Below, piece by piece: positions 12,771-50,741 of a stretch of DNA of 64,000 nt. Each line of letters opens with the position of its first letter. Position 1 is the first letter of the stretch. The DNA is taken from assembly GCA_025454255.1 (NCBI GenBank), contig JALOOU010000001.1, forward strand, positions 58,316 through 122,315, in the 5' to 3' direction. Under the pieces are notes generated by a model. That model ran no database searches. It was not told the origin of the DNA and was given only the letters and a program-made list of their open reading frames with translations. The position numbers and the translations under genes were made by a program. This DNA is from Desulfobacterales bacterium (lineage in GTDB: Bacteria > Desulfobacterota > Desulfobacteria > Desulfobacterales > SpSt-501).

Positions 12771-12824
12771 GAGCGCTCTCGCGTCCCGTTTGGCAGCCGC
12801 GCCCGATGCGCGCAGGTGGCTTGC

Positions 12825-13196
12825 ATGTATGAACTCAAGGTGGTGACCCGGTTTGCGGCCGCCCACCGGCTGACGATGGTGGGCGCCAAGTGCGAAAACA
12901 TGCACGGGCACAACTGGAAAATCGAGGTCTGCCTGGTCGGCCCGGAGTTGGATGATGCCGGGGTGCTGATGGATTTCGGCGAGATCAAGGCCCGCCTGCG
13001 CGAGATCATCGCCCGCGTGGACCACCAGTTTCTGAACGAGTTGGAGATGTTCCAGGGACGGCAGCCCTCATCCGAACGCATCGCCGCCTTCATCGCCGGC
13101 GAGCTGCAGCAGGCGATCGCCACCCCCGCCGTGCGGGTCAGCCGGGTCAGCGCCTGGGAATCCGAGGACTCCTGTGCGACCTATGTGGTAGGCTGA
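12825..13196 (+). CDS. queD: 6-carboxy-5,6,7,8-tetrahydropterin synthase QueD
   Basis: About 124 aa with the QueD CxxxHGH motif (KCENMHGHNWKIEV) and the N-terminal FAAAHRL pattern. Confidence 0.85.
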   Translation: MYELKVVTRFAAAHRLTMVGAKCENMHGHNWKIEVCLVGPELDDAGVLMDFGEIKARLREIIARVDHQFLNELEMFQGRQPSSERIAAFIAGELQQAIATPAVRVSRVSAWESEDSCATYVVG

Positions 13197-31930: not shown

Positions 31931-31950
31931 CGATATCATTAGGAGGATTC

Positions 31951-32568: not shown

Positions 32569-32634
32569 ACGATCTTCTGCCGCGCCCGACCGGCGCTGCG
32601 GCCAAACCCCTGTTGACGCGAAGGAGGCGAACGC

Positions 32635-34131: not shown

Positions 34132-34154
34132 TTGCCAGAGAAAGGAATTTTCCC

Positions 34155-34652
34155 ATGAACGCAGACCCACGCTTTTTTGAAAACGTCGACCTCTCCGAGG
34201 TGATTCTCACCCGGTTCCACCCCGGAGACGATCTGTTCCCCACACTGGTCAAAACCGTCAGGGACCGGGGGTGGGAGCGGGCCGTGATCCTCTCGGGCAT
34301 CGGCAGCCTCGAGGAGGTCGTCTTCGTCGCCCCCAAGCCCGCCTTCAAGATACCGGTCCAGCCGGCGGAGAACTTGAACAAAATCGAAATGAAGGGGCCC
34401 TTCGAGCTGATGAGCGTCGAGGGCAACATCGTGCCCCTGGTGGGCGAATTCGGGGCCATGAAGCACGGCGACCCGGTGCTGCACGTGCACTGTCTCCTCT
34501 CGCACGGCACGGGCGAGCTGACCGGCGGCCACATGATTTCCGCCAAGGTGTTCACCACCACCGAAATCTTCATCGCGCACGTGAAAAATTCGAAGGTCAG
34601 GAAAAAGAAGAGCGAGGTCACCGGGCTGCTGGAGTTCCGCAACGATCTATAG
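34155..34652 (+). CDS. PPC (DUF296) domain protein
   Basis: About 165 aa with a PPC-like pattern (AVILSGIGSLEEVVF ... GPFELMSVEGNI ... LHVHCLLSHGTGELTGGHM). Confidence 0.6.
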   Translation: MNADPRFFENVDLSEVILTRFHPGDDLFPTLVKTVRDRGWERAVILSGIGSLEEVVFVAPKPAFKIPVQPAENLNKIEMKGPFELMSVEGNIVPLVGEFGAMKHGDPVLHVHCLLSHGTGELTGGHMISAKVFTTTEIFIAHVKNSKVRKKKSEVTGLLEFRNDL

Positions 34653-34710: not shown

Positions 34711-35973
34711 ATGAAACGAAACGGACTGAAGTCGCTGGCCATGGCGATGCTGCTCATGGGAGTCCTCGCCGTTGCCGCTCCCGCAGGGGCTGCCGACACG
34801 GTGAAAATCGGCGTCATGTTTTCCACGACCGGCCCCGGGGCCGTCATCGGCGTGGGCCAGATGGAAGGGGCCAAAATGGCCATCGAGGAGGTCAACAAGG
34901 CCGGGGGGGTTTCCATCGGCGGCAAAAAGATGAAGCTCGAGGGCGTTTTCCGCGACGACGAGACCAACCCCCAGGTGGCGGTGGGCCGTTTCAAGGAGAT
35001 CGTGAAGGACCAGGGCGCCTCCGCGCTGGTCGGCGGGACCTTCGGCAACGTCTCGATGGCCCTCAATGAGGAGGCCAAGAAATCGGGCACTTTTTTCATG
35101 GCCACCAACGGCGTTCCGGAGGGTTTTTTTAAGAAGGACGTGAAGGCGCCCACTTCGCTATGCATCGTCGCCGCCTCCGAGTGGGCCGGCCGCGGCGCTG
35201 CCGCCTACATGGCCGACCAGATGAAAGCCAAACGCATCGCCTGCTTCATGCCCGACTACGCCATCGGCAAGGGGACGATGAAAGGATTCGAAGAGGTGAT
35301 CAAGGCCCGCCCGGGGGTCGAGTACACCGCGATCTGGCACCCGGTCCAGAGCCCGGACATGACCAGCTATCTCATCAAGGCCCTTGAGTTCAACCCCGGC
35401 GTCGTTTTTGTGGGCTCCTGGGGCGGGGACGCCGTCAACGCCCTGAAGCAGGCCCTGGAAACGGGGGTCGCCAAGAAGGCGCCCCTCTTTCATTTCTGGC
35501 TGATGAACGCCTTTGCCACCGGCATCCCGGCCAACGCCATGCAGGGGGTGAAAGGCCAGATGTTCTGGTACCACGACATGCGCGGGTTCAAGGACGCCGA
35601 GGTGGTCGCCGCTTCCGAGGAGTTCGTAAAAAAATGGATGGCGGGCCGCAGCGAACCGCCCGATCCCTACGCCATGAGCACCTATTACGGCGTCATGGAG
35701 ACCGTCCGCGCGATGGAGCTGTCCAAGTCGACGGACCCCGAAAAGATGGTCGCCGCCCTGATGGCCCACCCGGAGTGGAAGGGCGCAAAGGGGCCGGCCA
35801 AGTGGCGCCAGGACGGGGCCTGCATCTACAAGTACTCGACATGGATCGTGGAAGGCAAGGGGGAGGCCGAGCGCACGAGCGACCGCTACCCGGCCAAATT
35901 CGACTTCGCCAAGATTGTCGATGTCTATGCCGGCGACGCCTTCGTTCCGCCGCTGAGTGCGTTGGGGTACTAG
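34711..35973 (+). CDS. ABC transporter substrate-binding protein (Liv/branched-chain amino acid type, family I PBP)
   Basis: Signal peptide (AVAAPAGAADTVKIGVM), then a LivK-type pattern. 420 aa. Confidence 0.85.
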   Translation: MKRNGLKSLAMAMLLMGVLAVAAPAGAADTVKIGVMFSTTGPGAVIGVGQMEGAKMAIEEVNKAGGVSIGGKKMKLEGVFRDDETNPQVAVGRFKEIVKDQGASALVGGTFGNVSMALNEEAKKSGTFFMATNGVPEGFFKKDVKAPTSLCIVAASEWAGRGAAAYMADQMKAKRIACFMPDYAIGKGTMKGFEEVIKARPGVEYTAIWHPVQSPDMTSYLIKALEFNPGVVFVGSWGGDAVNALKQALETGVAKKAPLFHFWLMNAFATGIPANAMQGVKGQMFWYHDMRGFKDAEVVAASEEFVKKWMAGRSEPPDPYAMSTYYGVMETVRAMELSKSTDPEKMVAALMAHPEWKGAKGPAKWRQDGACIYKYSTWIVEGKGEAERTSDRYPAKFDFAKIVDVYAGDAFVPPLSALGY

Positions 35974-36056
35974 CAGCTCCTTCCGGGGATGCGTGCCGCC
36001 GGGCCCCTCGGGCGCCGGCGGCACGCGCACCCCGCTGCGCGCAGAGAGTCGGGCAC

Positions 36057-36821
36057 ATGACCGAGTTGATCGCCACCCACGGTCTAACCAAGCGCTTCAA
36101 CGGCCTTACCGCCGTCCATCAGGTCGATTTCCGGGTCAACGCCGGTCAGACCTCCGGAATCATCGGACCGAACGGCTCGGGCAAGACCACTCTCTTCAAC
36201 CTTCTCTCGGGATATTTCGCGCCGACGGAAGGCGCCATATCCTTTCAAGGCCGCGACATCACCCGCACGCAGCCTCATGCCCGGGTCGCCTTGGGGATCG
36301 GGCGAACCTTCCAGCTGGTTTCGGTGTTCACCTCCCTCACGGTGTGGGAAAACCTGGTCCTGGCCAATTTGCGCTTCCAGCCCGGCGAAACCTCGCTTGG
36401 CCGTTTTTTTTTCCGCACGGCGCGCCGCGCCCGGGTCCTCGCGGATTGCGCCCGGGCGCTCGAGTGGGTCGGGTTGGCCGACCAGGCGGGCGCGGGAGTG
36501 GATGAGCTCTCCTATGGCGACAAGCGCATGCTGGAGATCGGCATCGTCGCCTCTCTCAAACCCCGCCTGCTGCTCTTGGACGAGCCGCTTGCCGGCCTGA
36601 GCGACCATGAGATCAACCGCGTGGTGGAGATGATCGAGGGAATCCGCAAGCGGGTCACCGTGGTGATCATCGAGCACAAAATATCGAAAATCGTGGACGT
36701 GGTGGAGCGTCTGAGCGTGATGAACGAGGGCCGGCTGATCTGCGAGGGCACGCCGGAGGAGGTGCTCTGCAACCCCCAGGTCCGAGAGTGCTATTGGGGC
36801 AAGGAGGGCGAGGCGTGCTAG
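36057..36821 (+). CDS. ABC transporter ATP-binding protein (LivG-like)
   Basis: Walker A GPNGSGKTT, signature LSYGDKRMLEIG and Walker B LLLLDEPLAGL. Confidence 0.9.
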   Translation: MTELIATHGLTKRFNGLTAVHQVDFRVNAGQTSGIIGPNGSGKTTLFNLLSGYFAPTEGAISFQGRDITRTQPHARVALGIGRTFQLVSVFTSLTVWENLVLANLRFQPGETSLGRFFFRTARRARVLADCARALEWVGLADQAGAGVDELSYGDKRMLEIGIVASLKPRLLLLDEPLAGLSDHEINRVVEMIEGIRKRVTVVIIEHKISKIVDVVERLSVMNEGRLICEGTPEEVLCNPQVRECYWGKEGEAC

Positions 36822-37504
36822 AGATCAGCCAGTTGCACGTAGCCTATGGTCACGCCCACGTCATCCACGGAATCGACCTCGTGGTGAAACCCGGGGAGAT
36901 GGTCTTCATCGTCGGCCGCAACGGCGCCGGAAAGAGCACCCTGCTCAAAACCATCGCCGGCCTGATCAAACCGGCCAGCGGCGGGATTCGCTTCGAGGGC
37001 CGCTCGGTGGTCGGCGAAGCGCCCGAAAAACTGGCCCGCAGCGGCTTTCGCTTCGTGGCCCAGGACAAAAAGGTGTTCAGCAACCTATCGGTCCGCGCCA
37101 ACATCGCGCTCGCCGCCCACGGGTCCGGAACCCCCGTGGAGCAGGCCTGGTCCAAGGCGGTGCAGCTCTACCCGAAGCTGGATGAATTTCGCGAGCTTCC
37201 CGCCGGCCGGCTCTCCGGCGGCCAGCGGGAAATTCTGCTGATCGGCCGGGCGCTGACCGGCACCCCGCGGCTGCTGCTCATCGACGAGCCGACCGAGGGT
37301 CTCGCCGCCATCGTCATCGAGGACATTTTCAGGATTCTGAACGGCATGCGCCACACGCTCTCCTTCATCATCGTCGAACAGAACCTGTCGGTCGTAACCC
37401 GGTTGGCCGACCGGATCTACGTGATGAAGGAGGGTCAGATCATCCGCGAGATCACCCACCGGGGTGAACTCACCGACACCGCCCAATTGGAGGCTTATCT
37501 GTGA
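36815..37504 (+). CDS. ABC transporter ATP-binding protein (LivF-like)
   Basis: Start set at the GTG at 36815, after AAGGAGGG and overlapping the upstream stop. Walker A GRNGAGKST, signature LSGGQREILLIGRAL and Walker B LLLIDEPTEGL. Confidence 0.9.
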   Translation: MLEISQLHVAYGHAHVIHGIDLVVKPGEMVFIVGRNGAGKSTLLKTIAGLIKPASGGIRFEGRSVVGEAPEKLARSGFRFVAQDKKVFSNLSVRANIALAAHGSGTPVEQAWSKAVQLYPKLDEFRELPAGRLSGGQREILLIGRALTGTPRLLLIDEPTEGLAAIVIEDIFRILNGMRHTLSFIIVEQNLSVVTRLADRIYVMKEGQIIREITHRGELTDTAQLEAYL

Positions 37505-38523
37505 ATCCCTCCGATGGATCCAACTGCCGCGGCATCCGGCCCGCATCTCCGTGGGGACTGGGTGGGGAGCTCGCGCTCATCGCCGCCGCCCTGACGCTGT
37601 TGAGCCTCGTCATCAAAGTTCACTGGATGACGGACTTCATGATCTTCATCATTTTTGTGCTCAGCTTCGACCTGCTCTACGGCTACATGGGCCACCTCAG
37701 CTTCGGGCACATGCTTTACTTCGGAACCGGCGCCTATGGCACGGCGTTGTGGCTGGTCTACGGCGGAAAAGACCCGCTGGCCGCCTTGGCGGTGGGGTTG
37801 ATGGCCGCAGCGGGCCTGGCGGCGGTGCTGGGGATGATCGTCATGCGCACGCACGGGGCCTCTTTCGCCTTGATCAACATGGCGTTCAATGAAATCGGCC
37901 ATTTCATGGTCCAGTCGCCGCTGGCCGGCGTCACCCACGGCGAGGACGGTTTGAGCTGCTCGGCCGGCAAGCTTTTCGGCGTGATCAATTTCTACAAGGA
38001 CGAGTGGGCCTTCGCCGTCACGGCGGCCACCCTTCTGGCCGTGTTCGCTCTGCTGCGGGTGCTGACGGGCTCTCCTTACGGACTTTTGGTGCGCTCGATC
38101 AAGGAAAACGAGAAGCGGGTCAAATTCCTGGGCTTCAGCACCCTGCGCTATAAGTGGGCCACCTTCATCATCGCCTCCACGGTGGCCGCACTTGCCGGCG
38201 GGATGTTCACCCTGGTGCAGGGATTCGTCAGCCCGCGGGTGATCAGCCCCTTCGGCAACGTGGACGTTATTTTCGCGGTCCTGATCGGCGGGGCCGGAGG
38301 GCTCTACGGCGCGCTGATCGGCGGCATGGTGTTCATGTTGATCAAAAACTTTCTGCCCGTGATGATCCCGGAGCTGTCGAAGCTGCTGAACGTCAAGCTG
38401 CCTCAGTGGGAGATGTGGCTGGGGATCGTGCTGCTGATCATTGTCTTCTCGGTTCGGAAGGGCATCGTGGGTGCGATCCGCGCCCAGTGGCAGGCCCGGC
38501 GGCCTTCAGGGAGTCCGGCATGA
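37501..38523 (+). CDS. branched-chain amino acid-type ABC permease (LivM-like)
   Basis: Polytopic membrane protein with LivM-like motifs (LSFGHMLYFGTGAYG, GGAGGLYGALIGG). The GTG overlaps the upstream stop (GTGA). Confidence 0.85.
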   Translation: MNPSDGSNCRGIRPASPWGLGGELALIAAALTLLSLVIKVHWMTDFMIFIIFVLSFDLLYGYMGHLSFGHMLYFGTGAYGTALWLVYGGKDPLAALAVGLMAAAGLAAVLGMIVMRTHGASFALINMAFNEIGHFMVQSPLAGVTHGEDGLSCSAGKLFGVINFYKDEWAFAVTAATLLAVFALLRVLTGSPYGLLVRSIKENEKRVKFLGFSTLRYKWATFIIASTVAALAGGMFTLVQGFVSPRVISPFGNVDVIFAVLIGGAGGLYGALIGGMVFMLIKNFLPVMIPELSKLLNVKLPQWEMWLGIVLLIIVFSVRKGIVGAIRAQWQARRPSGSPA

Positions 38524-39356
38524 TCCAGACCATCGTCTACGGCTTCACCATCGGCGCCATCCTCTATTTTTTTTCGATCGGGCTGGCCCTGACCTTCGGC
38601 ACCATGCACATCATCAACTTCGCCCACGGCATGGTCTATGCCTTGGGGGTCTACCTGTTCATCAGCTTCTTGAAAGCTTTCGGCAACTCCTTCCTCGTTT
38701 CGCTGGTCGCGAGCGTAGTCTGCATGCTGCCGGTGGCCTACATCGTGGAGCGCTTCGTGATTCGCCGGCTCTACGGCGAGAGCCTCGACTATGCCATCAT
38801 CGCCACCTACGGGGTCCTTCTCATCGGCACCGACCTCATCAAACTGGTCTGGGGAACCACCCCCCATCCGGTGAACGACCCGATCGGCCTCTCCGTTCCG
38901 CTGGCCGGGCTGGACCTGCCGGTCTACCGCATTCTCATCGTCGTCAGCGCCGTGCTGCTGTTTCTGGCGCTGCGGCTCTTTTTCAAGCGGTCGATCATCG
39001 GCCAGATCGTCATCGCCTCCCTGGAGGACAGCGACGGGGTGCGCTGTCTGGGGCTCGACGTCAACCGCTATTTCAGCATCATCTTCGTGCTTGGAAGCGC
39101 CCTGGCCGTCCTGGGGGGCATCCTCTATGCGCCGATATCGACGGCGGAGCCCTACATGGGCTTCCACATCCTGCTCTTGGCCTTCGCCGTGGTGATCGTG
39201 GGCGGAATGGGCAACATCAACGGCACCTTCGCGGCCGCCATGGTGCTCGGCATGGTCATGGCCGTCACCGGACGCCTCTGGTCCCAGGCGGCCACCACCA
39301 TGGTGTTCATCGTCATGGCGCTGGTGCTCATCTTCAGACCGATGGAATCCGACTGA
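38520..39356 (+). CDS. branched-chain amino acid-type ABC permease (LivH-like)
   Basis: The ATG at 38520 overlaps the upstream stop. LivH-like N-terminus MIQTIVYGFTIGAILYFFSIGLALTFG and GGMGNINGTF. Confidence 0.85.
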   Translation: MIQTIVYGFTIGAILYFFSIGLALTFGTMHIINFAHGMVYALGVYLFISFLKAFGNSFLVSLVASVVCMLPVAYIVERFVIRRLYGESLDYAIIATYGVLLIGTDLIKLVWGTTPHPVNDPIGLSVPLAGLDLPVYRILIVVSAVLLFLALRLFFKRSIIGQIVIASLEDSDGVRCLGLDVNRYFSIIFVLGSALAVLGGILYAPISTAEPYMGFHILLLAFAVVIVGGMGNINGTFAAAMVLGMVMAVTGRLWSQAATTMVFIVMALVLIFRPMESD

Positions 39357-39366
39357 GGAAGACTCG

Positions 39367-39765
39367 ATGCTCAAAGGGATCGGCCACATCGCACTCACGG
39401 TGCGCAAAATCGAGGAGGTGGTGGCGGCGCTCTGCGGGGCGCTCGGAATTCCACTGCCGCCGATTCGAGACCTGCCGGAGCGCAAGGTGAAAGTGGCGCT
39501 GGTGGAGGTCGGCAACCTACAGCTCGAAATCCTGGAGGACACCTCCGCCGAGGGCTTCATCGCCCGCCACACCGCGGCGCACGGCAACGCCATCCACCAT
39601 TTCTGCCTTCTCAGCGACGACCTCGATGCAGACTTGGAGGGCCTGGAACGGAAGGGGGTCCCGCTGATGGACCGCCGGCCGCGGATGGGGGTGCGCGGCA
39701 AGCGCATCGCCTTCATCTCCCCTGATTTGCTGAACGGCATACCGATCGAGCTGTCGGAGCCTTAA
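39367..39765 (+). CDS. VOC-family protein, methylmalonyl-CoA epimerase-like
   Basis: 132 aa following the epimerase pattern (IGHIALTV ... VKVALVEVGNLQLEILE ... IHHFCLLSDDLD ... KRIAFISPDLLNGIPIELSE). Confidence 0.7.
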   Translation: MLKGIGHIALTVRKIEEVVAALCGALGIPLPPIRDLPERKVKVALVEVGNLQLEILEDTSAEGFIARHTAAHGNAIHHFCLLSDDLDADLEGLERKGVPLMDRRPRMGVRGKRIAFISPDLLNGIPIELSEP

Positions 39766-39790
39766 CCCGTAAAAACGGAGGAACGTGGAC

Positions 39791-41665
39791 ATGAAAGGGG
39801 TATGGAACAAGATCCTCAAGGTCGATCTCACCGCGAAGAAAGCGGCCACCGAGCACGTACCGGATGAGGTTTACGCCTATTTCCTCGGCGGCGAGGGTCT
39901 GGCCGCCTGGGTGCTGAACAAGGAGTGCCCGCGCGGCACCAGCGCCTTCGACCCGGCCAACCGGCTGACCTTGGCCGTCGGGCCGATGCAAGGCATCAAG
40001 CAAAGCGGCGCCGCCAAGTGGGCGGTCGGCGGGATCTCGCCGTCCATCAACATGAACGCCGGCTCGGCCATCACCCATGCCTTCGGCATCGAAATGAAGC
40101 AGGCCGGCTATGATGCGGTGGTGGTCCACGGGCGTGCGGAAAAGCCCGTTTACATCGTGATCGACGACGACAAGGTCCGTGTCAAGGATGCCGCGCGGCT
40201 GTGGGGCAAAGACTCCTACGACGCCCACGACCTCATCCAGGAGAAGGAAGGCGACGGGTTTGAGGTGGTCACCACCGGCCAGGCCGGGGAACGCCTGGTC
40301 CGGTACGCCAACATCCAGACCGCGCACAAATCCTTCGCCGGCCGCTGCGGGTTCGGAGCGGTCATGGGCTCCAAACTGCTGAAGGGCATCGCCGTGCGCG
40401 GCAGCCAGACCTGCCCGATCGCCGACCCCATGGCCAACGACGCGCTCAACAAGGCGATCAACAAGCGCCTGGCGGAGGTCAATGCCTCCAAGCCCGAGCT
40501 GTTCCGGATCTCCCACCTCGGCACGGCGATGGCGACCGCGCTTTTCGCGCCCCAAGGCAATCTGCCCGTCAAAAACTACCAACTGGCCTCGCACCCCGAG
40601 GGAGAGACCAATCTGGGGGGGCAGTCCTATGTCGAAAAATTGAACGCCAAGCCGTGGGCCTGCCGCTACTGCGTCATCAAGTGCCACAACAAGTGCGAGG
40701 TCAAAAACGGCCCGTATGCCTACAAGGGCAAGGGGCCGGAGTACGAGTCCTTCGCCATGATGGGCTTCAACCTCTTGATTGCGGACCAAGAGGCGGTGGC
40801 CTATGCCGGCGAGCTGGCCAACCGCTACTCGATGGACACGATCTCTTTGGGCGGCGTCCTAGCCTGGGCGATGGAATCTTATGAAAAGGGCGTACTCACC
40901 CAGGAGGACACCTACGGCATCGATCTCGCCTGGGGCAATGCGGCGGCCATGGTGGAGATGGTGAGAAAAATCGGCGAGCGGGCCCCGGGCCTGGGGTATC
41001 TCCTGGGAGAGGGCTGCAAGATCGCCTCCGAGCGCATCGGGCAGGGCTCCGAGCAGTGGGCCATCCAGATGAAGGGCCAGGAGATCGCCGCCCACAACTG
41101 GCGCGCCCAGTACATCTCCGCGCTGAACTACTGCACCGGCGTTGCTTCCGGCCCCAACCACGAGCGCGGCAACTCCCAGCACATCTGGGTCGGCCACATC
41201 CTGCTGCCGGAGTGGGGCATCGACCACGTGGAAAACGCCGAGCGCTGGTCCTGGGAGAAGGCGGCGGAGCGCAACGCCAAATTCCACGACTACTGCAACG
41301 TCATCAACTCGGCCGTGCACTGCAAGTTCCAGGAGTTCGCAAGCTACAACCTGACCGACCTGCTCGCCACCATCAACACCTGCACGGGCCTGAACTGGAG
41401 CCAGGAGGAGCTGCGCCGCTGCGGGGAGCGCATCACCAACCTGCAGAAGCTGCTCAACATCCGCTACGGCTGGAAAACGGCCGACGATTTCAACTACCCC
41501 AAACGGTTCATGGAACCCGTGAGCGAGGGGGTGGCGGCCGGCAAGATCCCGGCCGGGCTCGATGAGGCCATCGTCGACTATTACCGGCACCGGGGATGGG
41601 ACGACAAGGGCTACCCCACCGCGGCCAAGCTCAGGGAGCTCGGGCTGGAGAGCGTCCCGGGCTGA
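39791..41665 (+). CDS. tungsten-type aldehyde:ferredoxin oxidoreductase (AOR family)
   Basis: AOR N-terminal pattern (GVWNKILKVDLTAKKAATEHVPDEVYAYFLGGEGLAAWVL), Fe-S Cys residues (CRYCVIKC) and a length of about 624 aa. ATG at 39791, 9 nt after GGAGGA. Confidence 0.9.
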   Translation: MKGVWNKILKVDLTAKKAATEHVPDEVYAYFLGGEGLAAWVLNKECPRGTSAFDPANRLTLAVGPMQGIKQSGAAKWAVGGISPSINMNAGSAITHAFGIEMKQAGYDAVVVHGRAEKPVYIVIDDDKVRVKDAARLWGKDSYDAHDLIQEKEGDGFEVVTTGQAGERLVRYANIQTAHKSFAGRCGFGAVMGSKLLKGIAVRGSQTCPIADPMANDALNKAINKRLAEVNASKPELFRISHLGTAMATALFAPQGNLPVKNYQLASHPEGETNLGGQSYVEKLNAKPWACRYCVIKCHNKCEVKNGPYAYKGKGPEYESFAMMGFNLLIADQEAVAYAGELANRYSMDTISLGGVLAWAMESYEKGVLTQEDTYGIDLAWGNAAAMVEMVRKIGERAPGLGYLLGEGCKIASERIGQGSEQWAIQMKGQEIAAHNWRAQYISALNYCTGVASGPNHERGNSQHIWVGHILLPEWGIDHVENAERWSWEKAAERNAKFHDYCNVINSAVHCKFQEFASYNLTDLLATINTCTGLNWSQEELRRCGERITNLQKLLNIRYGWKTADDFNYPKRFMEPVSEGVAAGKIPAGLDEAIVDYYRHRGWDDKGYPTAAKLRELGLESVPG

Positions 41666-41755: not shown

Positions 41756-42001
41756 ATGAAAATCACCGTCAGCGGCAAACCCCAGGAGATCGCGCCGGGC
41801 ACTCGGCTGATCGCCCTGGTCAACCAATTGGAGGCGCGGGTCAAAAACGACCCGATGATCGTCAGCCTGATCCAGAAGACCGGCAGGAGCCACCTGCTCT
41901 ACATTCTCAACGGAACGGTCGTCAAAGCCGAAGACCACCCCACGATCGAGATGCAGGAAGGCGACGACCTGCGCTATGTTCACCCCTTCTTCGGCGGGTG
42001 A
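41756..42001 (+). CDS. MoaD/ThiS-family ubiquitin-like small protein ending in Gly-Gly
   Basis: 81 aa, MKITVSGKPQEI ... LNGTVVKAEDHPTIEMQEGDDLRYVHPFFGG. The size, beta-grasp-like pattern and terminal GG all fit. Confidence 0.7.
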   Translation: MKITVSGKPQEIAPGTRLIALVNQLEARVKNDPMIVSLIQKTGRSHLLYILNGTVVKAEDHPTIEMQEGDDLRYVHPFFGG

Positions 42002-42047
42002 ACCCTGACTGCGGATGCGAACGTCACCACCACAAGGAGAACTGCGA

Positions 42048-42896
42048 ATGGCCAAGAAGAAATTGATGATTCACGACTTTTACCGAATGAAAAAGGACGG
42101 GGAAAAGATCACCTTTCTCACCTCCTACGACTACCCCACGGCGCAGTTCGCCGAGGCCGCCGGCATGGACATGCTGCTCGTGGGCGACTCCCTGGGGATG
42201 TGCGTCTACGGCTACCCCGGCACGGTGCCGGTCACCATGGACCAGTGCATTTGCCATGCCGAGGCCGTGCGCCGCGGGGCGCCGAACACCTTCGTCGTGG
42301 GCGACATGCCCTTCATGTCCTATCAGAGCTCGATTGAAAAGGCCGTGGAAAATGCCGGCCGTTTCCTCAAGCAGGCCGGCTGCGACGCCATCAAGCTCGA
42401 GGGCGGGGTGCGGGTGGCGCCGCAAATCAGGGCGATCGTGGATGCGGGCATCATCGTCATGGGCCACATCGGGCTCACCCCGCAGAGCTCCGGGCAGCTG
42501 GGCGGCCACAAGGCCCAGGGCCGGACGGTTGAGTCGGCCCGGGCGGTCGTGGAGGATGCGCTCGCGGTGCAGTCGGCCGGCGCCCACATGATCCTGCTCG
42601 AGGCGATCCCGCCGGAGGTCGCCGGCTATATCCGCCGCAAGCTGGCCATCCCGGCGCTTTCCATCGGCGCGGGGCTGGACTGCGACGGGCAGCTTCTGAT
42701 CGTCTCGGACATGATCGGCCAGTTCCAGGCCTTCACCCCCAAGTTCGTCAAGAAATACTGCAACGTGGCCGAGGTGGTCACCAGCGCCATGAGGCAATAT
42801 GTGGCCGAGGTGCGAGGCGGAGCGTTCCCGGAGGATGAGCACTGCTATCACATGCTGCCCGGCGAGCTCGAAAAATTCCAGTCCGAATACAAATAG
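42048..42896 (+). CDS. panB: 3-methyl-2-oxobutanoate hydroxymethyltransferase (PanB) or close paralog
   Basis: PanB motifs (ITFLTSYDYPTA, LLVGDSLGMCVYGY, VVGDMPFMSY, AIKLEGG, MGHIGLTPQS). Confidence 0.8.
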   Translation: MAKKKLMIHDFYRMKKDGEKITFLTSYDYPTAQFAEAAGMDMLLVGDSLGMCVYGYPGTVPVTMDQCICHAEAVRRGAPNTFVVGDMPFMSYQSSIEKAVENAGRFLKQAGCDAIKLEGGVRVAPQIRAIVDAGIIVMGHIGLTPQSSGQLGGHKAQGRTVESARAVVEDALAVQSAGAHMILLEAIPPEVAGYIRRKLAIPALSIGAGLDCDGQLLIVSDMIGQFQAFTPKFVKKYCNVAEVVTSAMRQYVAEVRGGAFPEDEHCYHMLPGELEKFQSEYK

Positions 42897-42932
42897 CCGG
42901 GTGACGGTCCCCCACCCGAAAAGGAGATAGGC

Positions 42933-44189
42933 ATGACAAATTTGCACGAGCTTCTTAAAATTTCGTCCCGGCGCCTGGATGAGATCAATGCGCTCTTGAC
43001 CGACCCCAAGAACGAGACCGTCGCCGCCCTGCTCAAGGTGGTCGAGCGCCACGGCGGGCCGCAGGAGATCAACCGCAAGGCGGCCGAAGCCGCCACGCTC
43101 GAGAACCTCATGGCCCGCCTGGAGAAGGCGAAGTCCCCCTACCTTAAGGACCTTCACTGGCTGATCGAACAGCGCGACAAAAAGGCCTTCATTTCGATCC
43201 AGGACTACGTCCAAAAGGTCGCGGGGGCTTCGACGGCGCTGGATCAGAAGAACGCCGTCACGCTTGAGATCAGCGCCCTGCAGTATTTCCCCTGGCTGAT
43301 CACCGAGGCCAAACACTGCCTTGCGCAGGGCGAGTTGATGCCGGGCCGGTTCATCCGCGTTCGCAAAATGGTCGAACAGGAAACCGACAACGGGGACATC
43401 ATGGCAGTGGCGGCGGCCATGCAGATCATCGGCGCCAGCTACGTGGAGACGTTGGACACCAAGGGCACGGACGGCTCCAACGTCCACCTGGGCGGACCCG
43501 AGACCATCACCGGATACTTCGGCGGCATCGGCCAGCCCAACCACTACCCCCTGAAATGGGCCGATGAGTTTTTGAAATACTACACCACGTACGGCGTGCG
43601 CCAGGTGCTCAACATCAACCCGGGCACGGTGCTGGTCGGCTATCTCATGCACCGCCTCGGGATCGACAACGAGTTCAAGATTTCGGTCTTCATGGGCAAC
43701 GACAACCCCTTTGCCATTCTGTGGACGCTGTTGGCGGCAAGGCTCTTCGCGCGCGAGGACGGCAAGACCTCGCTGATCGGCTTCAATCTGTCCAACTCCG
43801 CCGACAACGACACCCTGCGCCAGGCCTCTTATCTGCGCCGGGCCCTGGGCCTCGAGGAGGTCGTCCGTTTCGAGCACCACATCACCGAGACCTGGAAATC
43901 CATCGTGCGCCAACCCTACAACCGCCGCGCCGAGCTGGTGGAAATCGCCAAGGAGGTGCCCAACATCTCCGCCAAGCACGAGGGCGGGGAGCCGGAAATC
44001 GAACAGGGGCTGCCGCATCCCTCGGACATCCTCGACTACTTTCTCGCCAAGGCCGATGCGGAGAAGGCCGGCCTGATGCCGGCGCTGGAGAAAAACTACA
44101 TGGAAAAGCACCGGTCGGTGGGGCTGACCGCCCAGGCGCTGGTCAAGGCCGGCATCGGCGTGGTCTGCGCCGCCAGGCTGCACCTCTAG
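42933..44189 (+). CDS. hypothetical protein (418 aa), no recognisable family
   Basis: RBS AAGGAG 6 nt upstream. Normal-looking composition with no low-complexity stretches or TM helices. It lies in the same operon-like run as PanB and the E1. Confidence 0.6.
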   Translation: MTNLHELLKISSRRLDEINALLTDPKNETVAALLKVVERHGGPQEINRKAAEAATLENLMARLEKAKSPYLKDLHWLIEQRDKKAFISIQDYVQKVAGASTALDQKNAVTLEISALQYFPWLITEAKHCLAQGELMPGRFIRVRKMVEQETDNGDIMAVAAAMQIIGASYVETLDTKGTDGSNVHLGGPETITGYFGGIGQPNHYPLKWADEFLKYYTTYGVRQVLNINPGTVLVGYLMHRLGIDNEFKISVFMGNDNPFAILWTLLAARLFAREDGKTSLIGFNLSNSADNDTLRQASYLRRALGLEEVVRFEHHITETWKSIVRQPYNRRAELVEIAKEVPNISAKHEGGEPEIEQGLPHPSDILDYFLAKADAEKAGLMPALEKNYMEKHRSVGLTAQALVKAGIGVVCAARLHL

Positions 44190-44249
44190 CCGCTCGCCGC
44201 CGCCGGCGAAAGCAGCGCCTTTCGCCGGCGGCGGCCGCTGAAGCTGCCG

Positions 44250-45017
44250 ATGCCGACCGCTGAACAGGAGAAACGCTACAGCCGCCAGATCCGGCTGCCC
44301 GCCATCGGCCCCGCGGGTCAGGACCGCTTGGGCCGCTCGCGCGTGGCGGTGGTGGGCTGCGGCGGATTGGGCTCGGTCCTGGCCCACGTCATGGTGCGCA
44401 TGGGCGTCGGGCGGGTCACCGTGATCGACGGCGACCGGCCCGAGGCCTCCAACCTGCATCGGCAGATACTCTATGACGAGGATGACGTCGCCGCTGGAAA
44501 ACCCAAAGCCCTGGCGGCCTGTGAAAAGCTCCGCCGGATCAACGCCCTGGTCGAGGTCGCGGGGAGGGCCGAGCGGCTGGAGGCGGCGAATGCCGATCGG
44601 CTCCTGGCCGACCACGAGGTGATTCTCGACGGAACGGACAATCTTGACACCCGCCTTTTGGTCAACGAGTGGAGTGTCGCCAGTGGCGTCCCGTGGGTGT
44701 ACGGCGCTGTCGCGCATGCGCAGGGCATGGTGCTCGCGGTGCGGCCCGACAATGGGCCCTGCCTGGTCTGCCTTTTCCCGGAGACGGCGGCCGAGTCGGC
44801 TGCGGAGGAGCCCCTGCCGATCTTTCCCCCTGCCCCCGTCGCCGTCGCCTGCCTGCAGGCGACCGAGGCCGTCAAACTCCTGCTCGAACCGGCGCAGGTG
44901 AACCCGAACCTCCTCGTTTTGGATCTCTGGAGCGGCAGCTGCCAGCAGATCCCCTTGCAGCGCAACAGCGCGTGCCGCTGTTGCGCGCATCGCCGCTTTT
45001 TTTATTTAACCCGCTGA
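44250..45017 (+). CDS. ThiF/MoeB/HesA-family E1-like adenylyltransferase
   Basis: RYSRQIRL, nucleotide loop VAVVGCGGLGS, DGDRPEASNLHRQ and two Cys pairs (CLVC, CRCC). Confidence 0.85.
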   Translation: MPTAEQEKRYSRQIRLPAIGPAGQDRLGRSRVAVVGCGGLGSVLAHVMVRMGVGRVTVIDGDRPEASNLHRQILYDEDDVAAGKPKALAACEKLRRINALVEVAGRAERLEAANADRLLADHEVILDGTDNLDTRLLVNEWSVASGVPWVYGAVAHAQGMVLAVRPDNGPCLVCLFPETAAESAAEEPLPIFPPAPVAVACLQATEAVKLLLEPAQVNPNLLVLDLWSGSCQQIPLQRNSACRCCAHRRFFYLTR

Positions 45018-45161: not shown

Positions 45162-46490
45162 ATGAAGAAACCCCTGTTCGAAAAAATGAAGTCGATGTTC
45201 CACCTGATGGAGCACGACTACCAGGAGATCAGCCCCCTGGAAATGCTGATCTACCGGCTGGCAAGGGGCAACACCTACAACATGCGCGTGGTGGGGCTGG
45301 AGGGCATCAAGCGCTTTCGCCGCGACAATCCCGATTGCGCCATCACCTTCAAGTCCAACCACCTGAGCGAAGCCGATTTCGTGCTGCTGGCGGTGCTCTT
45401 CCGGGACCACGGACTGCGTCTTCTGATCGAGGGCGGGAGCAACCTTTTTTTGGAGAACATCGACATTTTCGAGGACCTTCTGCCCAAGCTGCTCGGCCCC
45501 TCCTTTCGCACCTTGGCGCAGAGCCGGCGCCTCACGGTGGCGCAATACCTCTCCCAGCGCGGGGCCTTCAAGGTGTTTCGCAACCCCGTCAGCCTGACGC
45601 AGCCGAACGGGGAGGAGATCAAGCTCGGCCGCAAGGAGATCCTCTCCCTCGCCCGCGCCTACCGCCAGCAGCTGGTCATGGGAAAAGAGATGTATCTGAC
45701 GTTTCCCGGCTTCTCCACCGTGCGCTCGGGCCTGCTCGACCTGCTCAAGATGGACAGCGTGAAAACCGGCCGATCCTACACGGGCAAGATCGACGGGTTT
45801 CACCACCTGCCGTTTCAAATGGACATCGAGGCGTCGCTGGACACCGGCATCGACGTCTACATCGTCGGGGTCAACGTCGCCTACGAGCGCGTGCTCGAGG
45901 ACGACAATTTCCAGGAACTGACCCGCCTGCATGAAGCCGGCGCCGACCCGCAGGAGATTTACCTGAAGGACCTCGGATACGTGGTCAACCGCTTTCTGGA
46001 GGACAAACGCAAGGCGGACCTCTCTATCAAGTTCACGGTGCCCCGCAAAGTCGACACCAAGCCCATGCGCGGCGATGTCCTCGGCGCGAAAATCAAGTTC
46101 GCCGCGCACGCCTGCGCCCGCGAGACGTTCGAGCAGGTCATGGGGATGCAGCCGGTCTTCCCGGCCAACATCTTCTTTTCAGCCTTCGATGAGCAGTTCA
46201 GCCGGATGTCGGTGGGCGTCATGCGCGAAAAGATCGACGATCTGCGGGAGCATCTGCGCCACCTCGCCTGGGGCCGGCATAAGCGGCGCGTGGATTTGCA
46301 TTTCGTGCTCGGCTACAATCACCAGATCATGTCGGCCGACGAGATCATCAATCGCACGTTTGAGATCTTCACCGCCACGGAGCAGCCGGCCACATCGCTC
46401 GACGGAAACATGTTCGTGGTTCACAACCGGGACGTCGCCGCCCAATACCGCAACCACATCGGGCATTTTTTCGGCGAAGCCAAAAAGTGA
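45162..46490 (+). CDS. PlsB/GPAT-like acyltransferase family protein
   Basis: Acyltransferase block I HxxxxD (KSNHLSEADFVLL) and block III-like IEGGSNLF. 442 aa. Confidence 0.65.
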   Translation: MKKPLFEKMKSMFHLMEHDYQEISPLEMLIYRLARGNTYNMRVVGLEGIKRFRRDNPDCAITFKSNHLSEADFVLLAVLFRDHGLRLLIEGGSNLFLENIDIFEDLLPKLLGPSFRTLAQSRRLTVAQYLSQRGAFKVFRNPVSLTQPNGEEIKLGRKEILSLARAYRQQLVMGKEMYLTFPGFSTVRSGLLDLLKMDSVKTGRSYTGKIDGFHHLPFQMDIEASLDTGIDVYIVGVNVAYERVLEDDNFQELTRLHEAGADPQEIYLKDLGYVVNRFLEDKRKADLSIKFTVPRKVDTKPMRGDVLGAKIKFAAHACARETFEQVMGMQPVFPANIFFSAFDEQFSRMSVGVMREKIDDLREHLRHLAWGRHKRRVDLHFVLGYNHQIMSADEIINRTFEIFTATEQPATSLDGNMFVVHNRDVAAQYRNHIGHFFGEAKK

Positions 46491-47885: not shown

Positions 47886-50741
47886 ATGCGAAGGCGTTCT
47901 TGGATAGGCCTGTGCGCGGGTCTTTTCGTTATGGCGGCCGCTCCGGCGCCGGCCTCGGACCTCATCCAGGTTTCGACCCCCGGCCTGCCATCGGCGATCA
48001 GCGTCGAGCGCCTGGCGGGCCCGCAGCAGGCGGTTCTGTCGGTGCGCGACCCGAACGGCGAACCGATAGTGGGGCTCGGCCCCCGGAGCTTCGCGCTGGG
48101 GCATGGAATCCGCAAGGCGCGGGTGCTTTCCGCCGAACCGATTCAAGCCGACCAAGCCCTTCCCGTCAACCTGGTGCTGGTGATCGACAACTCCTTTTCC
48201 ATGCAGGAGCGGGGGGCGATCCCGCCCCTGCTGGCTGGGCTGGATGACCTTTTGAAGGATGTGCGGCCGATCGACAACATCCACGCGGTTGTCTTCAGCG
48301 AGCGGGGGATGAGCGTCGCGGGACGCAGCCTGAACGTGCGCACCTTCACCTCCAGCAGGGCATCGGAATGGAGCCGCTTTTTCGCCGAGGCCTTCGACAA
48401 GGGCATCACGCGCCGGACCTTCCTCTATGAGGCCGTCGCGGCCGGTTTGGAGATCGTTAAAACCATGCCGGCCGACGAGCAGAAGCTGATGATGGTCTTT
48501 TCGGACGGGGAGGATCTGAACAGCAAGATCGGCGCGGCGGCGGTCGCCGCCGGCCTGCCCGACCTCAAAAAATTTTGGGCGTTTGCCATCGACTATATGC
48601 CCGGGGAGAAGACGGACGCTTTTTTATCGAGCTTTGCCGCAAGCCATGGCGGACGGATCTGGAAAGCTCGCTCCGCCGCTGAGCTGAGCCCGATCTTTCG
48701 CTCATTCAAGACCGCCGTGCGACACAACTACCTGCTGACCTATGAACTGCTGAACCCGGTCGCGCTGGAGCCCAAGCGCCTGAGCTTCGAGCGGCTCACC
48801 ACCTCCACGGGCCGCCCGGCGGCCGCCATGGTGTTTTTCCATACCCATCGCGATCAACTTCCTGAGGCCTATGCCCTGCTCGGCTCTCCCGCCGCGGCGG
48901 ACGCCTTCCGGCCCGACGACCTGAAGGGCGCCCTGGAACGCTATTTCAATGTCCTGAACATCATCGGCAAAACGTTGCGCGAGGCGCCGGGGTCACGGAT
49001 AGGGATCATCGGCTGCACGTCGGACACCGGGCCCGAAAAAAACAACCTTGCGCTGGCCCAAGGCCGCGCCGAGGCCGTGAAAACCTACCTTGAGCGCATT
49101 TGGGGCATCGCCCCGGAGCGCATGCGGGTTGAAGCCCGCGGTCTGCCGGCCGATCCATCACCCTCCGACACCCGCGCAGGGCGGCTGGAAAACCAGCGGG
49201 TCGAGTTCATCTTCAGCTCGGAGGCCGCCCGCGCGCGCGTTCTCGGCGGCCTGATCGCAGAGGCCGAAAATCAACGCGCACTCTCCGTGAGACTCGACCT
49301 TCACCCTCTGCCGGGGATCGCCGGCTTCGAAGTCACGCTGCGGGGCGAAGAGCGGGTGCTGCACACCCTGGCTGCCGCCGCCGGACCCCAGCCCGCCTAT
49401 TCCATTCCGCTGGATGCCATCGGCCGGGAGCGGCTCGCGTCCCTGAATGCGATCGAGGCCGTGCTGCGCGTCACGGACGCATCGGGCCGGGTGCACGAGG
49501 CCGCCTCGGACCTCTGCCACCTCAAAACCGCCTCACGGGAGCTGATCCATGAAATCGGGCACCCCCCCTACGGCACGATCCGGCTGGAGCCGAGCCCTCT
49601 GACGGTGGAGGAAATCACCGTGGTCGAAAGCTCCCCCCTGCTTCACCACGTCTATTTCGAAGCCGGCCGCGCCGACATCCCGGAACGCTACCATCGGTTC
49701 ACCTCAGCCGCAGCCGCCTCCGGCTTTGATGAAAAAACGCTCCAGGGCACGATGGATAAGTACCGCCACGTGCTCGACATCATCGGCAAGCGCGCCGCGG
49801 AGCGTCCGCGGGCGCGGATCACGCTCACCGGCTGCCACTCCGATTCCGGGGAAGAGAAAGGCGATCTTAGGCTCTCGCGCCGCCGGGCAGAATCGGTCAG
49901 CGCCTATTTGAAAACCGTCTGGGGCATCGATTCGTCGCGGTTGCAGATAGAGGCCCGCGGGCTACCGGCGGCGGCGAGCACCCCCGGTAGCGCGGAGGGG
50001 CGGGCCGAAAACCAGCGGGTCGAAATCGCAGCGGACGACCCAGCCGTCCTCGACACCGTCCAAAGCACCCGCCTCGAGGCTGCCAGCGACACCGATCGCG
50101 TCCGGATCATCCCCGCAGTGGAAGAGGGCCTGCGCTTGAAGCGCTGGCGCATCGCGATCTACGGCGATGGAAACCGCCTCGAAGCCCTCGACGGCGAGGG
50201 GGATCTGGAGCCAAGCTATGTTCTGGCGCTGAAGGACGTGGGGCTGTTGAATCTCGGCCGGCACCAGACGATCACCGCTGAGCTGGAAGGCGAAGATGCC
50301 GCGGGCCGGCGGCTGCAGGTGCAGGACCGGGCCGAAGTGCGCCTTGTTCGGCGCGAAGAGCTTCGCGCGCGCCGGGAGGGCTACCGGGTGATCGAAAAAT
50401 ATGCGCTCATTCTCTTCGACTTCAACCGCGCCGATATCAAGGAGCGCAACCGGGTGCTGGTCGACCGCATCGGCGCGCGGCTGGGGCAGCAGCCTGCGGC
50501 CGTGGTCAAGATCGTGGGCCACACCGACCACATCGGCGGCGGCGACTACAACCTGGCGCTCTCCGCCAGGAGGGCCAAGGCCGTCTTCGACCTGCTGGCG
50601 GCCGGGGGCGCCTCCGCGCAGGGACGCATCTCCCATGAGGGCAAGGGGTCGGCCGACCCGCTTTATGACAACCGCCTGCCTGAAGGCCGGGCCTACAATC
50701 GCACGGTATCCGTGACCCTGGAATATGGGCAGAAACCGTAG
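47886..50741 (+). CDS. secreted VWA-domain protein with three OmpA-like (peptidoglycan-binding) domains
   Basis: Signal peptide (GLFVMAAAPAPASD). VWA MIDAS-like LVIDNSFSM and VFSDGED. Three OmpA-like modules at about nt 48936-49215, 49752-50030 and 50413-50725 (NLALAQGRAEAV...NQRVEF; LRLSRRRAESV...NQRVEI; GHTDHIGGGDYNLALSARRAKAV...NRTVSV). Confidence 0.85.
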   Translation: MRRRSWIGLCAGLFVMAAAPAPASDLIQVSTPGLPSAISVERLAGPQQAVLSVRDPNGEPIVGLGPRSFALGHGIRKARVLSAEPIQADQALPVNLVLVIDNSFSMQERGAIPPLLAGLDDLLKDVRPIDNIHAVVFSERGMSVAGRSLNVRTFTSSRASEWSRFFAEAFDKGITRRTFLYEAVAAGLEIVKTMPADEQKLMMVFSDGEDLNSKIGAAAVAAGLPDLKKFWAFAIDYMPGEKTDAFLSSFAASHGGRIWKARSAAELSPIFRSFKTAVRHNYLLTYELLNPVALEPKRLSFERLTTSTGRPAAAMVFFHTHRDQLPEAYALLGSPAAADAFRPDDLKGALERYFNVLNIIGKTLREAPGSRIGIIGCTSDTGPEKNNLALAQGRAEAVKTYLERIWGIAPERMRVEARGLPADPSPSDTRAGRLENQRVEFIFSSEAARARVLGGLIAEAENQRALSVRLDLHPLPGIAGFEVTLRGEERVLHTLAAAAGPQPAYSIPLDAIGRERLASLNAIEAVLRVTDASGRVHEAASDLCHLKTASRELIHEIGHPPYGTIRLEPSPLTVEEITVVESSPLLHHVYFEAGRADIPERYHRFTSAAAASGFDEKTLQGTMDKYRHVLDIIGKRAAERPRARITLTGCHSDSGEEKGDLRLSRRRAESVSAYLKTVWGIDSSRLQIEARGLPAAASTPGSAEGRAENQRVEIAADDPAVLDTVQSTRLEAASDTDRVRIIPAVEEGLRLKRWRIAIYGDGNRLEALDGEGDLEPSYVLALKDVGLLNLGRHQTITAELEGEDAAGRRLQVQDRAEVRLVRREELRARREGYRVIEKYALILFDFNRADIKERNRVLVDRIGARLGQQPAAVVKIVGHTDHIGGGDYNLALSARRAKAVFDLLAAGGASAQGRISHEGKGSADPLYDNRLPEGRAYNRTVSVTLEYGQKP

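Follow-up and report, generated by a model that had tools for sequence, protein, structure and literature searches.

This analysis concerns five consecutive genes in a 64,000-nt stretch of Desulfobacterales DNA (assembly GCA_025454255.1, contig JALOOU010000001.1, positions 58,316 to 122,315; the whole stretch is called the window), and above all one of them, U418, whose product falls in no named family. Inspection of the open reading frames (ORFs) placed all five on the + strand. They encode a predicted aldehyde:ferredoxin oxidoreductase (AOR; 39785-41665), an 81-aa ubiquitin-like protein (Ubl; 41756-42001), the hydroxymethyltransferase PanB (42048-42896, with the frame open from 42015), the 418-aa protein U418 (42933-44189) and a 255-aa E1-type activating enzyme (E1; 44250-45017). 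The intergenic gaps measure 90 nt between AOR and Ubl, 46 nt between Ubl and PanB, 36 nt between PanB and U418, and 60 nt between U418 and E1. An earlier note on this DNA, made from the letters and their translations, had given these coordinates, gaps and motifs exactly, and profile searches bore out its identification of AOR, Ubl, a PanB-like protein and E1. The window sequence is identical to contigs in two Desulfobacterales metagenome-assembled genomes, GCA_025490975.1 and GCA_025490995.1. The ORFs of the cluster are real genes, since their third-position GC content is 0.79-0.89 and each has homologues elsewhere. A 988-aa antisense ORF (42024-44990) was dismissed as a high-GC artefact.

The AOR matches both characteristic domains over its full length (AFOR_N 210 bits, E 1e-62; AFOR_C 341 bits, E 1e-101), and its nearest solved structures are AOR (1aor, 281 bits) and formaldehyde:ferredoxin oxidoreductase (1b25, 249 bits), the former from P. 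furiosus. It is predicted to be a tungsten-type AOR, that is an AOR/WOR large subunit of the single-subunit type. Ubl passes the PF02597 ThiS model narrowly (23.1 bits over its full length, cut-off 22.5) and stays under the cut-off of TIGR01683 thiS (29.3 bits against 37.45). It scores higher with the ThiS model than with any MoaD model. The protein ends in LRYVHPFFGG, followed by a TGA stop, and the C-terminal Gly-Gly is kept in every full-length homologue read (L022, L035 and L118-L122). The Ubl clade is narrow, with 41 homologues that are each at least 70% identical. Its gene lies directly 3' of an AOR gene in all five contigs looked up for three homologues, and likewise in L022 and L035.

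The E1 matches PF00899 ThiF over residues 10-244 (219.7 bits). It carries the nucleotide loop VAVVGCGGLGS (GxGxxG) and, in its C-terminal half, two CxxC pairs (CLVC and CRCC). In MoeB and ThiF two such pairs form a structural zinc site. The protein has no rhodanese domain. It falls below the cut-offs of all 26 NCBIfam models, every MoeB, ThiF and UbaA equivalog included, with best scores of 206 bits against cut-offs of 449-510, and equivalog cut-offs therefore assign it to no single orthologue among MoeB, ThiF, UbaA and MoeZ. The nearest solved structure is E. coli MoeB (1jw9, 115 bits), slightly above ThiF (101 bits). The E1 gene belongs to the same cluster as Ubl and begins 2.2 kb further downstream.

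MoaD genes have been described as 'strictly adjacent' to AOR genes, often together with MoeB, and were proposed to be specific to the tungsten cofactor (Iyer, Burroughs & Aravind 2006, PMC1779556). The same study listed the AOR-MoaD neighbourhood for many deltaproteobacteria (PMC1779556). A classification from 2026 gives the name WorX to the ThiS-like gene adjoining Class I tungsten oxidoreductases and reports thiF beside it in Cetobacterium (PMC13328260). In the aor operon of Aromatoleum, aorD and aorE encode two MoaD-like putative maturation factors, and the purified enzyme lacks both (PMC6365974). The window shares with these neighbourhoods (Iyer 2006; WorX and thiF at CsWOR87; aorD and aorE in Aromatoleum aromaticum) a single-subunit AOR gene followed by a Gly-Gly Ubl, with an E1 in the cluster. 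Strict adjacency of Ubl and AOR holds here too (90 nt, same strand), as it does in L022, L035 and L118-L122. The E1 is absent from L022 and L035, which matches the 'often' but not 'always' reported for MoeB (PMC1779556), and the host is a Desulfobacterota-type anaerobe, among the groups listed. The window differs in that PanB and U418 separate Ubl from E1, in the lack of MoaE, MoaA or a pyridine-disulfide oxidoreductase nearby, and in the narrowness of the Ubl clade. The likeness to the MoaD-MoeB-MoaE system of E. coli lies in an E1 nearest MoeB, with nucleotide loop and two CxxC pairs, and in a Ubl with the Gly-Gly needed for adenylation and thiocarboxylation. Unlike that system, the window has no MoaE match, Ubl is nearer the ThiS model, and the E1 is below the MoeB and ThiF equivalog cut-offs. 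We read Ubl as a predicted ThiS/MoaD-fold sulfur carrier of the AOR-linked WorX or AorD-like kind, for which a C-terminal thiocarboxylate is predicted. As an AOR accessory module, the sulfur-carrier part of the locus is of a known kind, and its interleaved layout is unusual.

PanB scores well above the cut-offs of TIGR00222 (318 bits, cut-off 207.55) and NF001452 (358 bits, cut-off 272), and reaches 249 bits against M. tuberculosis PanB (1oy0). The motifs DSLGMCVYGY, GDMPFMSY and KLEGG are present. Aligned with an approximate E. coli PanB sequence, which is 41% identical, the protein retains the motif residues of DSLG, D-x-P, K-x-EGG and GH-GLTPQS and also a later Glu. Invariant in the PanB alignment are D47, S48, D86, K116, E118, H140 and E185, which we take, from E. 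coli PanB, to be the catalytic and metal-binding residues. By profile score and conserved residues the protein is a predicted canonical 3-methyl-2-oxobutanoate hydroxymethyltransferase, and these results lend no support to the term 'PanB paralog' used in the earlier note. A tblastn search with this PanB found no second PanB-like sequence in the window.

U418 represents a large, unnamed and highly conserved family and is the new element of the locus. A word-indexed search returned at least 8000 homologues, of which the best 120 are 76-92% identical, and the names are 'hypothetical protein' throughout. At least 570 species-level loci encode a relative, identity between phyla is 60-90%, and members occur also in cyanobacteria and archaea. 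The earlier note had been unable to classify U418, and profile searches at default thresholds likewise gave the protein no match in Pfam or NCBIfam. A search of 61 family members against Pfam at E values up to 10 gave scattered noise and no consistent match, and neither phmmer nor profile searches found a relative in the PDB. Exhaustive phmmer over 1.8 billion cluster representatives recovered few full-length clusters at or below 50% identity and no bridge to a known family. No description of the family beside panB was found in literature searches. A JGI label of 'YihD/DUF1040' was rejected, the underlying match having E = 0.34. PanB is a member of the isocitrate lyase (ICL)/phosphoenolpyruvate (PEP)-mutase superfamily. 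Remote homology of U418 to PanB was rejected as well (hhalign probability 0.2%, E 0.35), and this profile-profile test against the PanB alignment was negative for U418 as a member of the superfamily. Apparent domain fusions of U418 (P0132, P0210, P0125 and P0146) look like chimeric or frameshifted gene calls, and P0135 and P0187 are frameshifted calls. P0210 strings together pieces of AFOR_N, PanB and U418, and calls of this sort are easily mistaken for domain fusions.

The U418 alignment contains 62 invariant residues, including many arginines, D175, H185, K249, D257, E314, H316, K348, H349 and E350, and no invariant cysteine. No ApbA, ketol-acid reductoisomerase (KARI) or other profile matches U418 even at E values up to 10, and Pfam gives no ThiG match. 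The invariant residues fit a metal-dependent enzyme that binds an anionic substrate, and they do not identify the reaction. Structure prediction, which had been proposed for this protein, yielded a confident TIM-barrel model but weak structural matches. The AlphaFold2 model from a 61-sequence alignment (predicted local distance difference test, pLDDT, 91.7; predicted template-modelling score 0.90) consists of an N-terminal helical bundle (about residues 1-97) and a (beta/alpha)8 barrel (about 104-412). Confidence is low only in a glycine-rich loop of strong conservation (residues 178-199). This loop may be compared with the mobile active-site loops that class II aldolases and ICL/PEP-mutase enzymes typically have. 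The model has no Rossmann domain and no recognisable NAD(P)-binding motif.

Foldseek searches of the PDB with the full model gave only generic TIM-barrel matches (template-modelling score, TM, at most 0.35). A barrel-only model (pLDDT 88.3) found class II fructose- and tagatose-bisphosphate aldolases as its best matches, at E 1.5e-5 to 1e-3, TM 0.38-0.46 and 9-13% identity. They were followed at 9-15% identity by 2,3-dimethylmalate lyase, 3lot of the beta-keto acid cleavage enzyme family (TM 0.46), methylenetetrahydrofolate reductase and sugar epimerases. For the ICL/PEP-mutase superfamily, the structural matches to isocitrate lyase and dimethylmalate lyase were no more than weak. ThiG lay outside the top 50 structural matches in both the full and the barrel searches, and aldo-keto reductases were outside the top 50 too. 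The barrel is what U418 shares with class II aldolases and ICL/PEP-mutase lyases, which give its best matches. It differs from them in the low similarity (TM 0.36-0.46, 9-15% identity), in the extra N-terminal helical bundle and in the lack of PanB profile similarity. At TM 0.38-0.46 no metal site could be mapped between the conserved H185, H316, H349 and D175 of U418 and the metal set of class II aldolases.

Homologues of the window genes were located by tblastn in 80 loci and the neighbouring ORFs were clustered. These are the best 80 of at least 570 species-level U418 loci, with U418 62-91% identical, and the frequencies describe relatives of at least 62% identity. Taxon names are the records' own labels, which comprise Desulfobacterota, Chloroflexota, Spirochaetales, NC10, Planctomycetota, Synergistia, Bacillota, Myxococcota and Vulcanimicrobiota. 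PanB adjoins U418 in 50 of the 80 loci, directly upstream on the same strand in 47 and directly downstream in three (Synergistia, Vulcanimicrobiota and Bacillota). Counting only loci with enough upstream flank, PanB is upstream in 46 of 68. Labels of about eight phyla occur among the PanB-adjacent loci (Desulfobacterota, Spirochaetota, Planctomycetota, Chloroflexota, Synergistota, Bacillota, Myxococcota and Vulcanimicrobiota). The E1, by comparison, is adjacent to U418 in none of the 80, the sole E1 match being a 30%-identical sequence about 5 kb away in L025. AOR and Ubl accompany U418 in two loci only (L022 and L035), both of which lack the E1. A metagenome scan with the E1 found only generic ThiF/MoeB homologues, at most 47% identical and with no AOR, Ubl or U418 nearby.

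The gene after the E1 in the window encodes U442 (45162-46490, + strand), a 442-aa protein with no Pfam or NCBIfam match. U442 follows U418 in L002, L003, L005, L022 and L035. The E1 of the window thus lies between genes that are otherwise neighbours, as relatives lacking the E1 have U442 directly after U418, and its position there seems restricted to the sub-lineage of the window. No E1 follows U418 in L001, where U418 is 91% identical. The 83-kb contig L002 retains the AOR only as residues 329-620 (L002:6106-7065) and Ubl only as residues 52-81, and has no E1. Its PanB (94% identical), U418 (88%), U442 (90%) and a further gene, U181 (83%), are intact. L002 looks like a natural decay of the AOR module alone. 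The window, L002, L005-L008 and L081 have in common an order running from carboxyltransferase, peptidase M23 and HD protein genes to U418-U442-U181. What immediately precedes U418 varies among these loci and may be ABC-F, VOC, an AOR remnant with PanB, or the whole block from GntR to PanB. Because the downstream order is shared and the upstream genes differ, U418 looks like the resident gene, upstream of which the AOR-Ubl-PanB block lies.

The other recurrent neighbours of U418 point to 2-oxoacid chemistry of the 2-oxoisovalerate/ketopantoate type. In 24 of the 80 loci an Lrp/AsnC regulator is encoded upstream at a distance of no more than 2 kb. Directly downstream, a class I/II aminotransferase (11 loci) alternates with an ELFV (Glu/Leu/Phe/Val-type) dehydrogenase (12 loci), together in 23 of 63 loci with enough flank. 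The ELFV dehydrogenase is a 625-aa protein with a C-terminal CBS pair (L073:8748-10625 and 11 other loci) and scores 91 bits against glutamate dehydrogenase models with a cut-off of 750. A VOC homologue is directly beside U418 in four loci (L005, L028, L049 and L071). Genes of a Liv-type transporter lie beside or near U418 in a clade of 38% identity (L083 and L123) and about 2 kb downstream in L001, L008 and L011. The clade of 38-40% identity encodes PanB, five Liv-type ABC genes, U418, IlvD, a metallo-hydrolase, DhaK, DhaL and IclR, with a bona fide IlvD directly downstream of U418 (TIGR00110, 641 bits, cut-off 618).

More distant arrangements extend this picture. In a Calothrix contig U418 is preceded by a 2-oxoacid decarboxylase of the indole/phenylpyruvate type, an ApbA-family reductase, an ELFV dehydrogenase and an aldolase of the dihydrodipicolinate synthase (DHDPS) family. 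L124 carries PanB, an FGGY kinase and U418, while its opposite strand encodes DHDPS, AOR and a member of the galactarate-dehydratase family. DHDPS and AOR are again near U418 in L125. In two Anaerolineae (Chloroflexota) loci, L060:3372-6488 and L069:9271-12166, two tandem fusions of a DapA-like aldolase with a formaldehyde-activating-enzyme (Fae) domain stand directly after U418, followed by a Nudix gene. Their Fae domains score 119 bits, which passes the TIGR03126 cut-off of 118, and 108 bits, just below it. No description of a DapA-Fae fusion was found in the literature searched. With approximate E. coli queries, no PanC, PanD or IlvC was found within about 8 kb of U418 in about 120 loci or in the window, and no PanE except for the Calothrix ApbA gene.

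The PanB proteins beside U418 belong to two lineages, either 66-94% or 47-50% identical to PanB of the window, and the link between PanB and U418 was therefore formed more than once. Among L032, L033, L039 and L046, labelled Desulfobacterota, Spirochaetales, Chloroflexia and Planctomycetota, the U418-adjacent PanB proteins are 74-83% identical. Such identity across phyla looks high for a housekeeping enzyme, given that the PanB of the window shares no more than 41% with that of E. coli. Either horizontal transfer of the pair or mislabelled bins may explain it.

On balance, we suggest that the locus is probably a mosaic of two functionally separate units, AOR with Ubl and E1 on one side and PanB with U418 on the other, placed in one co-directional cluster. 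In the first unit, the MoeB-like E1 would adenylate the C-terminal Gly-Gly of Ubl, a persulfide donor would turn the adenylate into a thiocarboxylate, and the sulfur of Ubl would build the pyranopterin dithiolene of the tungsten cofactor of AOR. This sulfur chemistry is modelled on the MoaD/MoeB paradigm. In the second unit, PanB would make ketopantoate from 2-oxoisovalerate and methylene-tetrahydrofolate, and U418 would act as a cytoplasmic TIM-barrel enzyme of a new family, outside the sulfur relay. Genomic context and predicted fold tentatively suggest a divalent-metal-dependent carbon-carbon lyase or aldolase-type enzyme acting on 2-oxoacids of the 2-oxoisovalerate/ketopantoate type, an assignment we would stop short of calling probable. 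In other genomes the substrate or product of U418 might be interconverted with an amino acid through the adjacent aminotransferase or dehydrogenase. In the Desulfobacterales lineage the AOR-Ubl genes and PanB would have come to lie upstream of a resident U418. The proposal of an AOR-dedicated maturation module, made in the earlier note, would then stand for Ubl and E1, whose neighbourhood is documented, and fall for PanB and U418 as a separate unit.

Several observations weigh against a division into two units. AOR, Ubl, PanB, U418 and E1 are probably co-expressed, since the gaps do not exceed 90 nt and no terminator-like site was found on the + strand in any of them. In at least three other assemblies (L118, L119 and L121) the order Liv-(VOC)-AOR-Ubl-PanB-U418-ThiF recurs. 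The ThiF gene of L121 is called as 129 aa only. Downstream of the block, L118 and L119 have a short-chain dehydrogenase and malate synthase and not U442, so the block is kept within the lineage in a different flank. AOR-family genes of other clades lie within about 8 kb of U418 in L043, L048, L050, L073, L124 and L125, and AOR and U418 may be metabolically linked. A small ORF ending in Gly-Gly stands beside the AOR in L050 and in none of L043, L048, L073, L124 and L125. The absence of MoaE from the window, a partner in the paradigm on which the first unit is modelled, also counts here. As the earlier note had observed, no MoaE-like gene is present there, and tblastn with approximate E. coli queries found neither MoaE nor MoaC in the window; queries with MoaD and ThiS found nothing there either. 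The function of WorX is itself still only predicted (PMC13328260), as is that of aorD and aorE in Aromatoleum (PMC6365974). For U418, the aldolase-type assignment is a lead and not a finding at TM values of at most 0.46 and 9-15% identity.

The mosaic has to be weighed against three other readings. In one of them, which builds on the distinct sulfur-carrier or Ubl pathway suggested in the earlier note, E1 would activate Ubl to a thiocarboxylate and U418 would use it much as ThiG uses ThiS, with sulfur entering a PanB-derived 2-oxoacid to give a thio-compound. Four tightly spaced, co-directional genes whose order is kept in L118, L119 and L121 would fit such a pathway, as would the combination of Ubl, E1 and a TIM-barrel protein in one cluster, which recalls ThiS-ThiF-ThiG, and the invariant lysines K249 and K348 of U418, which are superficially ThiG-like. 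We consider it highly improbable. U418 has neither sequence similarity to ThiG nor a structural match to it among the top 50 of either search, it lacks an invariant cysteine, and nearly all U418 loci are without Ubl or E1, so that hundreds of species encode U418 with neither beside it. The E1 is adjacent in none of the 80 loci, Ubl is present in L022 and L035 only (without E1), and L002 lost Ubl and kept PanB and U418. The association of AOR, Ubl and E1 is independently explained by the literature (PMC1779556, PMC13328260, PMC6365974). An E1 in the position after U418 was found only in the species of the window and in L118, L119 and L121. The full four-gene order is confined to a narrow Desulfobacterales lineage. 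Elsewhere the genes are not syntenic, which the earlier note itself had counted as evidence against a joint pathway.

A pantoate-synthesis pair, with U418 as a non-orthologous ketopantoate reductase or another pantothenate or valine step (e.g., the isomerase half of ketol-acid reductoisomerase), would explain why a canonical PanB adjoins U418 in 50 of 80 species and why U418 stands between PanB and an authentic IlvD in the divergent clade. The other neighbours are valine-node enzymes and an Lrp regulator, and the reductase step is otherwise never encoded nearby, PanE and IlvC being absent from U418 loci except for the Calothrix ApbA gene. Such a pair nevertheless seems distinctly unlikely. The window PanB is canonical, as in a classical panB-panC-panD operon (with panE or ilvC), yet its partner here is U418, and PanC and PanD are never adjacent to U418. 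The absence of a Rossmann fold and of an NAD(P)-binding motif rules out membership in the PanE, IlvC or PanG reductase families, though not the activity, and the 50 best structural matches include no aldo-keto reductase. The Calothrix cluster has an ApbA-family reductase in addition to U418, searches upstream found neither a pan RNA motif nor any other Rfam family, and L026, L064, L072 and L079 combine Lrp, U418 and an aminating enzyme (dehydrogenase or aminotransferase) without PanB.

An aldehyde could instead link the whole cluster as one operon. PanB and U418 would make or cleave a 4-hydroxy-2-oxoacid, releasing or consuming an aldehyde, possibly a formaldehyde unit, which AOR and the aldehyde dehydrogenase encoded upstream would oxidise. 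Ubl and E1 would only mature AOR, and Liv and VOC would belong to the same pathway. This reading and the mosaic are not exclusive, and we regard it as rather unlikely. In its favour, AOR-family genes lie near U418 in the unrelated L043, L048, L050 and L073 and, in L124 and L125, together with a DHDPS-type aldolase. DapA-like aldolase-Fae fusions follow U418 in L060 and L069, and in Calothrix a DHDPS stands beside U418 with the 2-oxoacid decarboxylase, ApbA-family reductase and ELFV dehydrogenase. The aldehyde dehydrogenase and a GntR regulator lie upstream in the window, the U418 barrel resembles class II aldolases, and the AOR scores nearly equally against formaldehyde:ferredoxin oxidoreductase and AOR. 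However, about 7 of 90 unrelated loci with an AOR no more than 8 kb away amount to a modest enrichment, by rough estimate and with no computed statistic, and such anaerobes probably have several AOR copies. AOR is missing from most U418 loci, and L002 lost its AOR while keeping PanB and U418.

Returning to the mosaic, its second unit could be part of something larger. U418 could be the signature enzyme of a new pathway at the 2-oxoisovalerate/ketopantoate node that makes or breaks 4-hydroxy-2-oxoacids, together with a one-carbon 2-oxoacid aldolase and an aminating enzyme. The aldolase partner would be PanB in most lineages and the DHDPS-Fae fusion in some Chloroflexota. We put this forward as a possible but doubtful scheme, the choice of partner included. 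Such a pathway might serve as a folate-linked cycle of formaldehyde capture or release with 2-oxoisovalerate as the carrier, or might supply a step in the synthesis of pantoate or valine by a non-orthologous enzyme. The module would appear to travel between phyla.

The sulfur-carrier part of the locus adds little, being a further example of the AOR-MoaD/ThiS-MoeB neighbourhood with a predicted role. The main lead is U418, a conserved and unannotated family of predicted TIM-barrel proteins associated with PanB. In these genomes panB is tied to U418 more tightly than to panC or panD. Pantothenate and branched-chain 2-oxoacid metabolism are considered fully mapped. If U418 acts at this node, it would represent either a non-orthologous replacement of a known step or an undescribed use of ketopantoate or 2-oxoisovalerate. 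Its carriers are sediment and groundwater anaerobes, some cyanobacteria and some archaea.

The five genes stand within a longer cluster, all on the + strand. It begins with a GntR/FCD regulator (30400-31200) and a 4Fe-4S protein (31190-31930), both recognised by Pfam/NCBIfam matches, followed by a 205-aa ORF of no assigned family (31951-32568), an aldehyde dehydrogenase that reaches no equivalog cut-off (32635-34131) and a PCC-domain protein (about 34155-34652). Five genes of a Liv-type (HAAT family) ABC transporter come next (34711-39356), encoding a Peripla_BP_6 binding protein, two ATPases and two BPD_transp_2 permeases. A VOC/glyoxalase-fold protein (39367-39765; PF13669, E 2e-17) precedes AOR, Ubl, PanB, U418, E1 and U442, in that order. 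The VOC protein is methylmalonyl-CoA epimerase-like, with a TIGR03081 score of 89.7 bits below the cut-off of 115. The cluster is probably co-transcribed as one co-directional run. Given the upstream genes at 30400-34652, AOR may belong to a more extensive catabolic operon that encodes two enzymes for aldehyde oxidation.

About 30 kb upstream of AOR, two MoeA genes lie on the + strand (8267-9523 and 9617-11545), the second fused to a PBP-like domain (NF011068, 764 bits), and a 6-pyruvoyl-tetrahydropterin synthase follows them (12816-13196, +). Because of the MoeA genes, the window does contain metal-insertion genes for a pterin cofactor, although it contains no MoaE. At gathering thresholds neither the window nor any of ten loci matched an Rfam family, and a search at E values up to 1 brought up no credible match. 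The pan motif, the molybdenum cofactor (Moco) motif and the tetrahydrofolate (THF) riboswitch were sought in this way and were not found. U442 contains the sequence SNHLSEAD, which fits an H-x4-D motif that we take to be that of glycerolipid acyltransferases, a reading supported by no profile. Further downstream and unrelated to the genes discussed here, a 951-aa OmpA-domain protein (47886-50741, +) is apparently internally duplicated, with two similar halves that each have an OmpA-like end.

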